Below, piece by piece: positions 4,546 to 62,643 of a stretch of DNA of 64,000 nucleotides (the stretch's first letter is position 1; each line of letters starts with the position of its first letter). The notes under the pieces are model-generated. The model made no database searches. It saw only the letters and a list, made by a program, of their open reading frames with translations, and was not told the DNA's origin. Made by a program: the position numbers and the translations under genes. Source of the stretch: a virus; IMG/VR virus record IMGVR_UViG_3300032307_000117, positions 11,892 through 75,891 of that record; one strand, written 5' to 3'.

Positions 4546-5766
4546 TTATTTATCTTCAAAGTCTTTGTATTTGTAAATGCCTCTGTCAAAATCTGCCTGG
4601 ACTAGGAACTCCCCCATAAATCCATTTCTATTTTTCCTAAAAACACATTCTATGATATCACTATTTGTTCCACGACCCAAAGCCATTACCCAGTCAGCAT
4701 CGTAAGCAATCTGGCGAGACCATGCAGTCTGACCAAGAGTTGGTACGGTGTCTAGCTTTGTAACATCGTCTGGCGTTGCAGAAGAAATGGCCATGATTGG
4801 CACTGCTTCAGAAATAGCCATAAGCTTTAGCTCACGAGAAAGATTCTTCATTCTAACAGTTTCGTTATCTGACTTTTGGTTTGGGCTCATAAGCTGAAGG
4901 TAGTCTACGATTACGAAGTCTGGCTTATATTGATCAATCTTTCCACGAAGAACTGATGGCGTAATATCTCCACCAGTGTCATTAGAAATAATGTGAAACT
5001 CTGGCTTGCCCTCTAGATGATTCTTGTGCCACATCTTAAGCGTGTCTAGCTCAACCTCTCCAGAGCTCATCTTTCTGTGGGACCAAAGACCTTCGCCCAT
5101 AATTGTAAATACACGATTACGGACTTCTGTCTCTGACATTTCTAGAGAGATTACTAGTGGCGACTTTCCCTGTTTCCATGCCTGTACCGCAAAGTAAAGT
5201 GATAGCCAGGACTTACCGATTCCAGGATACGCTAGGAACACGCCAAGCTGTCCTGGCATAATTCCAGCTGGGAGATAGTTGTCAAATCCTGGCAGGCCAG
5301 TTTTAATTCCAGCGATTCCAGCTTCTTGCTGCTTCTTTAGGTTTTCAAAGTAAGCAATGGCAGACTCTAGGTCGGTGACATCAATGTCTCGAATTGCTGC
5401 AGTGTTTTTCTTAAGCTCTGATGTTTGCGAGATGAGCGACTCTAGGGCATGAGTACCATTGCCATTCTGAACGTCTGCAGCAGCCTGTCTAATAATATCC
5501 TTTAGGCTATCGTTAAGATATTCTGTCTGCAGCTCTTCTAGGTGGTGCTTGGTTGCACCAACGCTATCTACAGGGTGGAAGTCTCTAAACTTTTCTATGA
5601 CCAGTGACTTTGGTGGAACTGATCCATTGTGCTCTGTATAGTTTCTAATGAAATCCCAGATATCGTTGTGGGTTCTTAGAAGTCCGTCGACGTTGGCCTG
5701 AAGCAAAACATGAACTTGTTTATCTTCCAATACCGCAGATATTAGTTTTGCCTCTGTGTTATTCAT
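4546..5766 (-). CDS. dnaB: Replicative DnaB-like (SF4) helicase
   Basis: Walker A AYPGIGKS, ISLEM, VIVDYLQLM, DADWVMAL, KNRNG. Confidence 0.95.
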   Translation of the reverse strand: MNNTEAKLISAVLEDKQVHVLLQANVDGLLRTHNDIWDFIRNYTEHNGSVPPKSLVIEKFRDFHPVDSVGATKHHLEELQTEYLNDSLKDIIRQAAADVQNGNGTHALESLISQTSELKKNTAAIRDIDVTDLESAIAYFENLKKQQEAGIAGIKTGLPGFDNYLPAGIMPGQLGVFLAYPGIGKSWLSLYFAVQAWKQGKSPLVISLEMSETEVRNRVFTIMGEGLWSHRKMSSGEVELDTLKMWHKNHLEGKPEFHIISNDTGGDITPSVLRGKIDQYKPDFVIVDYLQLMSPNQKSDNETVRMKNLSRELKLMAISEAVPIMAISSATPDDVTKLDTVPTLGQTAWSRQIAYDADWVMALGRGTNSDIIECVFRKNRNGFMGEFLVQADFDRGIYKYKDFEDK

Positions 5767-6067
5767 TTAGCCATTCCCTCGCCATTCTTCGTCTCTGTAT
5801 TCTTTCTTGTAAATCTTGTTCGTACTGACTTCTAGAGTCCTGGATTTTATCTGCATAGTTTGCAAAGTATTTCCATGCTGGACTCTGAGAAACGTCGAAA
5901 TAATATTGTAGCAGATCGTAGCAGAACTCTATACCATACGACTCAATCAGGGCATCTGCTGCCCACTGCTCTACGTTTAGATTAAGATTGGGTCGCTCAT
6001 TGTACTTTGCTGCATGCAACTTGCTGTATCTGCTGAGCAAAGCCATACGGTCTTTGCGCTCAGGCAT
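5759..6067 (-). CDS. Hypothetical protein coupled to helicase (possible loader)
   Basis: 102-aa ORF overlapping both neighbours. Confidence 0.75.
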   Translation of the reverse strand: MPERKDRMALLSRYSKLHAAKYNERPNLNLNVEQWAADALIESYGIEFCYDLLQYYFDVSQSPAWKYFANYADKIQDSRSQYEQDLQERIQRRRMAREWLNE

Positions 6068-6279
6068 TACTCTGAAACTTCTTCTTTGGCTTCGTTAATC
6101 TTAGTAATTAGCTTCTGCTCAACAAATGAGTAGACACGAGTAAAGGCTTCGTCAATCGATTCGCCATCTCGCTTTGAGTCAACAACCCCAAGATCAATTC
6201 TTAGAGATTGGAAGTTTCCTAGATTAAGCGTATAACCTAGAGCAACGTTAACTTTTGTGCTGTCGTTTTCCATACCCAT
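6067..6279 (-). CDS. Small conserved phage protein
   Basis: TLNLGNFQSLRIDLG motif common in phage replication modules; start at 6279 or 6273. Confidence 0.75.
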   Translation of the reverse strand: MGMENDSTKVNVALGYTLNLGNFQSLRIDLGVVDSKRDGESIDEAFTRVYSFVEQKLITKINEAKEEVSE

Positions 6280-6293
6280 ACCCTTTCAAGGTA

Positions 6294-6839
6294 CTAAATA
6301 GATTCACTCCAAATCGGAATGAATCTGCCGTCTTCTGTTCTCGTATAAGTCAGTATACCATCACCCATACGCCTTGTCAACTCCTGACGTGTTGGGGTTA
6401 TATCATTTGTAATAAGCTTATCTTTCCTTGGTCTACCCTGATGGTAAGAGGCAAGGATGTCACGGATTTCTCTGACCTGTGATTCAGAGTAGTAGGACCT
6501 AACCTGCCAGCCCCTCTCTCCGCCCTTCTGGGAGCCCATAGGAAAGGGAATGACGCCTCTTTTCATCAAACTAGGCATATACTTCTTGTGCCTGTTTACA
6601 AGGTCTGCAGTCTGTCCTACGGTATAGGCTCTTTCCCTGTTCTTCTTAAAATCACTAATAAGACAGCTTTCAATCTGGTCTTTGGTTATGTTGTAAACAG
6701 ACATAATTCCATTAGACTTATTCAGGTGATGGATCCTTACAAGGTCACCATTTAAGAACCAGACCTTTTTGTTGCCAGGAATTACTGGAGCCTCGTTATA
6801 TTTTTCTTCTTCTATTGATCGCTTATCGTTGGCTGCCAA
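6294..6839 (-). CDS. DNA-binding protein with MerR-like winged HTH
   Basis: AYTVGQTADLVNRH...RGVIPFP...RSYYSESQV; TTG start after GGCGGGG. Confidence 0.65.
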   Translation of the reverse strand: MAANDKRSIEEEKYNEAPVIPGNKKVWFLNGDLVRIHHLNKSNGIMSVYNITKDQIESCLISDFKKNRERAYTVGQTADLVNRHKKYMPSLMKRGVIPFPMGSQKGGERGWQVRSYYSESQVREIRDILASYHQGRPRKDKLITNDITPTRQELTRRMGDGILTYTRTEDGRFIPIWSESI

Positions 6840-6856
6840 AACATACCCCGCCTTTA

Positions 6857-56780: not shown

Positions 56781-57176
56781 TTAGAGTTCTCCAGCTCCAG
56801 TTACCTGGTCAGTTACCGATATTGTTCCAGTAACAAGAGTTAGAATATATGGAGTAGCTTCTACAGATTTACGTATTTCAACGTCGTAGACGTATGATGT
56901 TCCTGCGTTCATAGAGGTTCCCTGTCCAGGAGTTATTGTGCAGAGAATGTATGTATCTGAAAGCTCTGTGACTATTTGAGCGCTGCATTCGATTTGGCTT
57001 GCAATTCCAGCAATACCTCTTTCGGTAGCGACGAAGAATCTAACGTTGTCTTCGCTTTCAGTGTCAGCGAATGAGCTTAGGTCAAACGCCGTGCCATCTG
57101 AATTTTTCGGGTAGATCTTAAATTCGTAGGTGTCACCCTTGTAATAAGAAAAGTTATAAGTTCCTGGAAATGCCAT
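56781..57176 (-). CDS. Ig-like/BppU-N-like virion protein
   Basis: YYKGDT...YVYDVEI...TGTISVTDQVT. Confidence 0.65.
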   Translation of the reverse strand: MAFPGTYNFSYYKGDTYEFKIYPKNSDGTAFDLSSFADTESEDNVRFFVATERGIAGIASQIECSAQIVTELSDTYILCTITPGQGTSMNAGTSYVYDVEIRKSVEATPYILTLVTGTISVTDQVTGAGEL

Positions 57177-57223: not shown

Positions 57224-57316
57224 TTAATTAGACTTCTGGGTCTTGTATACTTTTCCAGCAACTTTGATAACTGGAGGGATATTCAGAGGGGCTGCTGATA
57301 CCCGTATTACTGGCAT
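57224..57316 (-). CDS. 30-aa peptide coupled to upstream gene
   Basis: TAATG overlap; MPVIRVSAAPLNIPPVIKVAGKVYKTQKSN. Confidence 0.6.
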   Translation of the reverse strand: MPVIRVSAAPLNIPPVIKVAGKVYKTQKSN

Positions 57317-57696
57317 TATAGTCCTCCGCTGGTAACATCTGCAATAACAGATATTGTTCCTACAACTGGAGTCCAGACGGTATCTCCGATTGTCACTTCT
57401 AGATCAAATGGTAGTTCAGCAACGGTATATCCGTATCCAATACCCCAAAGCTGTGTAATCTCAGGATTAGCTACGATATCTACATATCCTGAAAATACGT
57501 TGACTTCGAGTTCGTCGAGAGCATCTCCCCTTGAATCATAGGTAGATGAGTTAAAAAGCCAGGTAGATGTATTGACGTAGGTAGATTCATCATTCTCAAG
57601 GAATTCAACACGCAGGGTAGCTGTATCGCCTCTAACTACAGACCATTTGACATTGGCTGGATCTGCGCCAATCTTATCTATTACGTGTTGTCCCAT
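57316..57696 (-). CDS. Ig-like/BppU-N-like virion protein
   Basis: WSVVRGDT...FDLEV...GTISVIADVT; leaderless. Confidence 0.65.
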   Translation of the reverse strand: MGQHVIDKIGADPANVKWSVVRGDTATLRVEFLENDESTYVNTSTWLFNSSTYDSRGDALDELEVNVFSGYVDIVANPEITQLWGIGYGYTVAELPFDLEVTIGDTVWTPVVGTISVIADVTSGGL

Positions 57697-57721
57697 AACA
57701 AAATTATAACATAATAAATAA

Positions 57722-57774
57722 TAAAACTGGTACTCAGGGCGGTGGGTATGAGAGACGATCCTGAGTACCAGCTT
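57722..57774 (-). ncRNA. Candidate hairpin small RNA
   Basis: TGTTATAAT just upstream; perfect 12-bp stem CTGGTACTCAGG/CCTGAGTACCAG; 21-nt loop; U-tract. Confidence 0.5.
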
Positions 57775-57970
57775 ATAGAATTATAACATAATTATAACAA
57801 AATCTCAAGAATATCAAGGGGTTAGAAATTGTTACAAAATTGTTATAAAAAATATTCGATCAAAATAAAAAAAGTGTGGTATATTGTTATAATTAGGTTT
57901 TAAGAAATAATATATATAATATATAAAGAATATTAAGATATAGGATATATCTTATATATTATAATAATAA

Positions 57971-58264
57971 TCAGTTTTTTGGTTTTGAAGTTTTAACAGG
58001 TTTTGTGGGTGTTGTTAGAATATCGTAAATTTCATCGACTTTTTGATTTAAATTAGCATGTTGAGCTTCTAACCTATTAACCTGATCTTTTAAGCTTGAA
58101 CCACCATTTGGTTTAAATTCTTTAGCGACTTCCTGAATTTCATGCTTTACGAATTTAGTGAAAGTTGTATATATTGTATAAAAAATACCTGAAACCATGG
58201 TAATAATTGTTAGGATTCCTATAGTTAAAGGAACCCATGTTTCCAGCCAATTTAAAATTTCCAT
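57971..58264 (-). CDS. Holin-like membrane protein
   Basis: N-terminal TM helix; KPNGGSSLKDQVNRLE motif typical of actinophage lysis-region membrane proteins. Confidence 0.65.
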   Translation of the reverse strand: MEILNWLETWVPLTIGILTIITMVSGIFYTIYTTFTKFVKHEIQEVAKEFKPNGGSSLKDQVNRLEAQHANLNQKVDEIYDILTTPTKPVKTSKPKN

Positions 58265-60855: not shown

Positions 60856-60974
60856 TTATCTACAAAGTTATCCACAGCGTTATCAAATCGTTATAATTTA
60901 TCGGCGTGTTTACTTGACACGACACGCCCGAATGAGGTACCCACCTGTGGATAACTCGATCTGCCTGTGGATAA
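60856..60974. promoter_or_regulatory. DnaA-box cluster
   Basis: TTATCTACA 60856, TTATCCACA 60868, TGTGGATAA 60946 and 60966; another at 62551. Confidence 0.7.
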
Positions 60975-62517: not shown

Positions 62518-62643
62518 ACTTGACAAGTCCCCAGAAATGAGGTACCCACCTGTGGATAACTTGTTAATAACTATTTACGAAAGAGTTTAAGAAAGTCCCG
62601 AAAAGATCCACAAAATGTCGGTGGTCAATGCTAAGATTATCTT

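Follow-up and report, generated by a model that had tools for sequence, protein, structure and literature searches.

On the minus strand of the 64,000-nucleotide phage sequence analyzed here (the window), a hairpin lies between two co-directional genes. On its 5′ side is a 97-aa gene (57971 to 58264) with one transmembrane segment and weak holin-like PHROG matches, and on its 3′ side is a 126-aa gene of phrog_1084 (57316 to 57696), which opens a long structural array and served as our synteny anchor. The tandem promoter boxes, 12-bp stem, 21-nt loop, and U-rich tail described in the original prediction were all found. The stem is perfect, with its 5′ arm, CTGGTACTCAGG, at 57760 to 57771 and its 3′ arm, CCTGAGTACCAG, at 57727 to 57738, both defined by the fold and by covariation, and the MFE fold adds three A-U/G-U pairs. 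The apical loop, ATCGTCTCTCATACCCACCGC / AUCGUCUCUCAUACCCACCGC (57739 to 57759), is the proposed seed and has a core that is kept in relatives, and the U-rich tail, TTTTATTATTTATT (57713 to 57726), forms a terminator-like 3′ end. The MFE of the hairpin is −25.8 kcal/mol, compared with −11.0 ± 2.7 kcal/mol for shuffled sequences (z = −5.4). We looked for a gene opposite the hairpin and found nothing encoded there.

The likely promoter of the small RNA (sRNA) is the proximal extended −10 box, TGTTATAAT (P1; 57780 to 57788, minus strand). A −35-like hexamer, TTGAGA (57803 to 57808), lies 17 nt 5′ of the proximal TATAAT on the same strand, and this TTGAGA-N17-TATAAT arrangement was the top promoter-scan match of the region (11/12, including the TG extension). 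The distal TGTTATAAT box (57791 to 57799) repeats the proximal one as an 11-nt tandem unit; relatives carry one box and no tandem duplicate. The window holds eight copies of TGTTATAAT against 1.08 expected, and none of 100 shuffles reached eight. The gap between box and hairpin had been given as about 6 nt. We measured 8 bases to the 12-bp stem, or 5 when the three extra pairs are counted; the close spacing stood and the figure was adjusted. Consistent with the earlier statement that no gene intervenes, we found no open reading frame of at least 30 aa between box and stem. Based on promoter spacing and the U tract, we predict an RNA of about 55 to 59 nt (57716 to 57774, minus strand), with its 5′ end at A/A/G 57774 to 57772 and its 3′ end within the U-rich tail. 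A look-up of sequencing runs containing this DNA listed no RNA run.

A third copy of TGTTATAAT, overlooked in the original prediction, forms another extended −10 box (P2; 57703 to 57711, minus strand). It is located only 6 nt 5′ of the ATG at 57696, so the mRNA of the 126-aa gene is probably leaderless. Boxes of the form TGNTATAAT occur 5 to 7 nt before the ATG at eight gene starts in the window, on both the minus strand (box 57711/ATG 57696, 52985, 47460, 43766, 41907, and 24534) and the plus strand (59260 and 63540). Judging by these starts, translation without a leader is probably common among the genes of this phage. Leaderless mRNAs are a typical habit of Actinobacteria. Phrog_1084 is represented by two tandem paralogues of 131 aa (56781 to 57176) and 126 aa (57316 to 57696), which together open the structural array on the minus strand.

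The IMG/VR record behind the window (IMGVR_UViG_3300032307_000117) is 75.9 kb long, with an estimated completeness of 70% and a GC content of 41%. The window encodes a portal, a prohead protease, a capsid protein, a 2,885-aa tape measure protein, and numerous tail-fiber genes, as well as a replication module of DnaB, primase, SSB, and Pol III alpha. Relatives came from freshwater metagenomes, and the phage family includes more than 599 contigs with DnaB; complete relatives are 90 to 117 kb long and have terminal repeats. The phage group is one of large (about 105 to 117 kb), uncultured freshwater siphoviruses. No integrase or resolvase was found in four complete relatives, a search for tRNA and tmRNA genes returned none, and neither blastn of the hairpin region nor tblastn of the 126-aa protein against cultured phages gave a match. 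The nearest kin of the capsid protein are those of Streptomyces siphoviruses (42% identity), and based on this kinship and the leaderless starts, the host is probably a low-GC actinobacterium. MAG bins with contigs of the phage group (L278 to L286) were labeled Acetobacteraceae, Beijerinckiaceae, Flavobacterium, Polynucleobacter, Bifidobacterium, Aquiluna, and Rhodoluna. Labels from such unrelated phyla indicate binning artifacts and are unusable for host calls, and we rejected a host assignment from these mutually inconsistent bins.

We collected 80 related loci from IMG/VR by using the 126-aa protein as an anchor. Nearly all of them share the same order of promoter box, a few bases, a 12- to 15-bp hairpin, a U-rich tail, a second box, and an ATG. 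A covariance model built on 51 distinct sequences gave 66 matches (62 distinct sequences) with E values of 1e-5 to 1e-21; the match in the window (57716 to 57778) scored 67.8 bits (E value, 1e-18). Each phage yielded a single copy in the model search, always at the same syntenic position, and every related locus with enough upstream sequence carries a copy of the hairpin. In one locus (L065), the hairpin fell under the model threshold, yet it is visible by eye. The copy is likewise single where an extra gene separates the RNA from the anchor and in loci reached via the 97-aa gene, which is itself syntenic with the sRNA in relatives.

Covariation of the stem, one of the checks proposed with the original prediction, was evident: 11 of the 12 pairs showed compensatory changes on both sides among the 62 distinct sequences. 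Alignment cells in which both sides had changed numbered 151, compared to 35 in shuffles, and none of 500 shuffles reached the observed value. Stem cells were paired in 87.9% of cases, compared to 70% in shuffles and 33 to 55% when partners were slid, and the covariation score was 0.62 versus 0.26 in shuffles (0/500) and 0.07 to 0.21 in slid controls. A TGNTAYAMT box ends 1 to 7 nt (mode, 6 nt) 5′ of the stem in 60/62 distinct relatives, and an extended −10 box lies 5 to 7 nt ahead of the stem in 50/62. Beyond the hairpin, the P2 box begins 1 to 16 nt past the stem (9 to 11 nt in 29/62) and reads TGGTATAAT in 44/62. The 10 nt that follow the stem contain 3 to 9 T residues among relatives, and the poor U tract in many of them leaves the 3′ end of the RNA uncertain. 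The promoter box stays with the covarying stem and the loop core throughout the relatives, which supports the original view of a stand-alone small RNA unit over a mere terminator of the 97-aa gene. Judged by its sequence, the hairpin is a genuine small RNA gene, conserved across a large phage group.

Rfam searches returned no matching family, whether for the window at the gathering threshold, for positions 57650 to 57900 at E values of up to 10, or for nine relatives of both loop classes (see below) at E values of up to 1. An exact search for the loop in IMG/VR gave no match, and a search of 151 sampled bacterial genomes, from the class of one relative-bearing MAG, with the sRNA model gave none. 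We class the predicted sRNA as a new family of an already known regulator type.

An alternative explanation is that the hairpin serves only as a terminator or insulator between the 97-aa gene and the structural operon, with a loop that has no role in trans. Like Rho-independent terminators, it combines a GC-rich stem with a U-rich tail between co-directional genes; it probably also ends transcription and would stop read-through from upstream as well. It differs from them in its conserved 21-nt loop, in the promoter directly 5′ of it, and in the weak U tracts of many relatives. Terminator loops are short and free to vary, whereas those of the relatives are 15 to 25 nt long with a conserved core, and they are kept even where the U tract is weak. 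Rho-independent terminators are defined by a loop of 3 to 8 nt and a direct U tract, and because of its 21-nt loop, the hairpin was not listed by the terminator scan. With a promoter box just 5′ of the stem in 60/62 distinct relatives, a short RNA would be made in any case, and termination alone leaves unexplained the covariation of the loop with a distant ribosome-binding site (RBS) that we describe below. We give this explanation a slim chance.

The loops that accompany this conserved RNA share a C-rich core in which CCAC is invariant. Two classes differ strongly (CAUACCCACC versus CCCCCACCCCAC): class A, to which the window phage belongs, has the loop GUCUCUCAUACCCACC, and class B has CUACCCCCACCCCACUG. 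The C runs of class A are limited to CCC and CC, whereas class B has CCCCC and CCCC. The original prediction had called the loop “anti-AUG.” As a general property this fails, because CAU is missing from class B (CUACCCCCACCCCACUG), whose loop pairs with RBSs of the GGUGGGG type. A likeness of CUCAUA-CCC to the initiator tRNA anticodon arm was dropped for the same reason.

The proposed target site, GGGUAUGGGUAUG (6271 to 6283, minus strand), spans the SD region and likely start codon (ATG, 6273 to 6271) of a 70-aa gene (phrog_5189; 6067 to 6279), with the start at ATG 6273 chosen from the family consensus. This site is complementary to CAUACCC(A) in the loop, with 8 contiguous pairs and a duplex energy of −16.4 kcal/mol. 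The 70-aa gene sits between a 181-aa “MerR-like” gene and an overlapping 102-aa/DnaB pair and is the first cistron of the overlapping 70-aa/102-aa/DnaB block. The 102-aa gene (phrog_11101; 5759 to 6067, minus strand) is without an SD of its own and begins inside the stop codon of the 70-aa gene (TAATG); the DnaB-like replicative helicase gene (4546 to 5766, minus strand) in turn shares its first 8 nt with the end of the 102-aa gene. These frame overlaps (4546 to 6279) suggest translational coupling of the two small proteins with the helicase. Other genes of the phage have ordinary AGGAGG sites, which makes GGGUAUG an odd RBS. A TGGTATACT box (6352 to 6360, minus strand), located within the 3′ end of the 181-aa gene and 72 nt ahead of the 70-aa gene, may be an internal promoter of the block.

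The family of the 70-aa protein comprises 3,381 clusters. Phrog_5189 is a PHROG without an assigned function, and the protein matched no Pfam family. Its AlphaFold model consists of a beta-hairpin and a long helix (pLDDT, 86), and Foldseek against the PDB returned nothing under an E value of 2.5.

Because loop matches of 7 to 10 nt turn up dozens of times in a 100-kb genome, the 70-aa gene site does not stand out in any one genome. Whole-genome energy and k-mer scans likewise gave many sites of equal quality in coding regions, and we therefore adopted a comparative approach based on 27 genomes with both loci, to which a 28th was added later. Cognate loops and 70-aa gene RBSs formed duplexes with a mean energy of −14.44 kcal/mol, compared to −12.81 ± 0.38 kcal/mol for permuted pairs (0/20,000 permutations, relatedness ignored). 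The longest perfect match averaged 7.65 nt for cognate pairs and 6.56 ± 0.18 nt for permuted ones (0/20,000, again ignoring relatedness). Within class A alone, the cognate match length gave a p value of 0.0006 (relatedness ignored), and non-class A loops gave p values of 0.01 to 0.04. In most of the 27 genomes, 7 to 11 contiguous pairs connect the loop and the RBS of the 70-aa gene, compared to 4 to 5 for neighboring genes, and the permutation test on the RBSs of the 181-aa, 102-aa, and DnaB genes gave no signal (matches of 4.4 to 5.1 nt). The 70-aa gene also ranked first in an unbiased screen of 47 orthogroups in four genomes. Across 66 distinct relatives, its RBS matched consensus loops over a mean of 7.14 nt, compared to 4.4 to 4.9 nt for the neighbors.

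Class A loops face GGGUAUG(A) in the 70-aa gene RBS, and RBS variants track the loop. For example, the loop UCAUACCC of L013 faces the RBS GGGUAUGA, and in its sister L004, the loop UUAUACCC faces GGGUAUAA. Other loop/RBS combinations are UUCAUACCC/GGGUAUGAA in L226 and L189, CUCUCAUACCC/GGGUAUGAGA in L160, UAUACCCAC/GUGGGUAUG in L026, UGUUCCUUA/GGAGGAACAA in L088, UAUCUCUC/GAGAGAUA in L288/L280, and CCCCACC/GGUGGGG in the class B phages L022 and L024. Some relatives pair via other registers of the loop, over up to 11 nt (e.g., GGTATGAGAGA and GAGAGACA), which helps to explain why the whole loop is conserved. Pairing is weak in L007 (5 nt), in L071 and L200 (6 nt each), and in L066 (6 nt, at the start codon only). 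By eye, we counted about six compensating loop-RBS changes. On a tree of the DnaB region, there are 2 to 3 independent pairs for the class switch and 3 for a C/U position, too few for significance in a sign test (p = 0.5); all independent pairs were compensating or neutral, with none opposed. For the second target of the original prediction, the “next gene” at 6271 to 6285 (the 70-aa gene), complementarity is conserved and changes with the loop over 27 to 28 genomes. The most likely partner of the exposed loop is the RBS of this gene, which heads the DNA-helicase genes.

The original prediction had placed the 181-aa MerR-like gene first, with the RNA silencing both it (6842 to 6854) and the next gene. 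Both of the mRNA strings it quoted, AAGGCGGGGTATG (6842 to 6854) and AAGGGTATGGGTATG (6271 to 6285), are present. In the window phage, the RBS of the 181-aa gene carries GGGTATG (6842 to 6848, minus strand) and a flanking G, and its predicted duplex with the loop (−16.8 kcal/mol) is on a par with that of the 70-aa gene. This GGGTATG is unique to the window phage and is not conserved: 25 relatives share just 4 to 5 nt between this RBS and the cognate loop, which is chance level, and cognate pairs were no better than permuted ones (p = 0.10 for energy and 0.60 for match length). We see little prospect that the RNA works through the 181-aa gene in this way; the GGGTATG may serve the window phage alone as an additional site, outside the conserved system. 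A better-matching target elsewhere in the phage, also suggested originally, was searched for in the window and the whole contig, where near-perfect complements of the loop were confined to the opposite strand of the hairpin itself, besides chance-level matches.

The loop could also be read by something other than an mRNA, either as a protein-binding RNA (a decoy or assembly factor) or as a DNA-level site such as a cruciform, an origin, or a regulator site. An invariant CCAC inside a conserved loop would fit such a role, as would the repeated (T/G)ATAAC(A/G)AT(T)T motifs upstream, which suggest regulator binding, and the two occurrences of TACCCACC in an early-region repeat of this phage beside a DnaA-box-like sequence. 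Same-sense TACCCACC was not found elsewhere in three complete relatives, and we rejected it as a clue for this lack of conservation. The strong difference between CAUACCCACC and CCCCCACCCCAC suits a changing RNA partner better than a single protein, and a promoter set to start exactly at the stem favors an RNA product. The probability of a protein- or DNA-level role is, in our view, very slim. The early repeat, AATGAGGTACCCACCTGTGGATAACT, is about 26 nt long and occurs at 60925 to 60960 and 62530 to 62565 (plus strand), 3′ of TTGACA-N18. It shares the 8-mer TACCCACC with the sRNA loop and holds the DnaA-box-like TGTGGATAA.

The predicted pairing of the loop with mRNA would place the candidate RNA among trans-acting sRNAs, as it has its own promoter box, a compensatory stem, and a conserved loop complementary to a translation start region. 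To our knowledge, very few regulatory RNAs have been catalogued in virulent phages, and no description exists of one from the abundant freshwater phages that probably infect low-GC Actinobacteria. The C4 antisense RNA of phages P1 and P7 has loops that pair with the RBS region of a phage operon, with downstream genes repressed by coupling; it is processed from the transcript of its own targets and forms part of a temperate-phage immunity system. C4 is the closest phage analogue, in that loop and target differ together between related phages, as they appear to do here. It is cis-linked, whereas the sRNA described here has its own promoter and a proposed target 51.5 kb away, and four complete relatives showed no integrase. 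Cis-encoded antisense RNAs (lambda OOP, P22 sar, and P1/P7 C4) are opposite their target or on the same transcript, and our sRNA is neither. The RsaE/RoxS sRNAs of Firmicutes use an exposed C-rich motif to pair with the SD and block initiation, and they are chromosomal, multi-hairpin, and multi-target. The proposed C-rich pairing with the SD is alike, whereas the sequences are unrelated; Rfam includes these sRNAs, and we obtained no match to it.

The closest system in mechanism is the 6C sRNA of Actinobacteria (RF01066; B11 of mycobacteria), whose C-rich loops pair with G-rich RBS regions, the same seed arrangement as proposed here (PMC6486639). Its mechanism has been described as chaperone-independent, with dnaB as one validated target (PMC6486639); the proposed target of the phage sRNA heads a block that holds the phage DnaB. 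The 6C sRNA has two hairpins, each with at least six C residues in its loop, whereas the phage sRNA is a single hairpin that lacks this feature, is phage encoded, and in class A has a loop that does not consist of a C run (CAUACCCACC). It also gave no match to the RF01066 model at any threshold tried. A phage-encoded base-pairing sRNA linked to DNA replication in lytic growth is known from lambda: LPR1/PreS targets the host dnaN gene in Escherichia coli and enhances its translation with Hfq (bioRxiv 10.1101/2024.10.31.621285). The sRNA described here is instead proposed to target a gene of the phage itself, which we expect it to repress.

These comparisons bear on another possibility, that a genuine phage sRNA acts mainly on host mRNAs, through the G-rich RBSs of a probably actinobacterial host, the 70-aa gene match being secondary or one of several. 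At the 70-aa gene RBS, most class A duplexes engage fewer positions than are conserved in the loop (GUCUCUCAUACCCACC, with its invariant CCAC). In particular, CCAC is not engaged in most of these duplexes, a hint of a further partner in host or phage. Actinobacterial 6C loops bind many G-rich sites, dnaB included (PMC6486639), and the lambda sRNA targets host replication genes (bioRxiv 10.1101/2024.10.31.621285). Against this, the MAG bins of relatives name unrelated phyla and do not identify the host, and part of the wide conservation is covered by the other loop registers that the 70-aa gene uses in other phages. A main role in the host also leaves unexplained why the phage RBS tracks the loop while neighboring RBSs stay put. 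We regard host mRNAs as unlikely main targets.

Weighing these points, we favor, at slightly better than even confidence, a phage sRNA gene whose loop pairs with the 70-aa gene RBS and represses the replication block. The unit would be an sRNA gene at a fixed site, between the 97-aa gene and the leaderless phrog_1084 gene. A host-type extended −10 promoter would drive an RNA of roughly 55 nt, running from the base of the stem to the U-rich tail, and its loop would pair with 7 to 11 nt around the SD and start codon of the 70-aa gene, which lies on the same strand 51.5 kb further downstream. This pairing would keep ribosomes off the 70-aa gene. Because the frames overlap and the 102-aa gene is without an SD of its own, the helicase should fall with the first cistron. 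The sRNA is probably a translational repressor of the replication block, and as its promoter is of the same type as those of the structural module, the RNA may damp that block during virion building. When the RNA acts, that it represses, and that the frames are coupled are all predictions of this model.

The sRNA is minimal, one hairpin with a terminator-like loop as its seed. It occurs in a family that counts hundreds of members from metagenomes, and it has a specific, testable predicted target, the gene that leads the replicative helicase block. Confirmation would make it a clean natural case of loop-to-RBS control without a chaperone in the life cycle of a phage, with natural compensatory variants ready for experiments. 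A more speculative extension, which we consider unlikely, is that loop and RBS together serve as a variable RNA “address code,” timing the helicase operon and maybe acting between phages. The codes among relatives include CAUACCC/GGGUAUG, CCCCACC/GGUGGGG, UGUUCCU/GGAGGAACA, and UAUCUCUC/GAGAGAUA, and since they differ among co-occurring relatives, they may act between phages. If so, an established infection would silence the replication genes of an incoming relative with the same code, an RNA-based exclusion that would create heteroimmunity-like classes in virulent phages.

We also observed repeated TTATAACAATTT / TGTAACAATTT motifs 5′ of the sRNA promoter (57810 to 57870, minus strand). Motifs of this type are also present 5′ of the sRNA in L002, L014, and L020 to L034, and in class B relatives they make a palindrome, TTATAAC-N5-GTTATAA. 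Further copies lie at 60895 (minus strand) and 63518 (plus strand), and the motifs may be sites for a regulator of the sRNA or of late promoters. Upstream of the 181-aa gene, homologues in L237 to L248, L178, and L212 share a conserved element, TGGATCAAGAAAATTTTTTCATCCACC, located about 45 nt from the gene. This element is present in most relatives and absent in the window phage, where the start region of the 181-aa gene differs.
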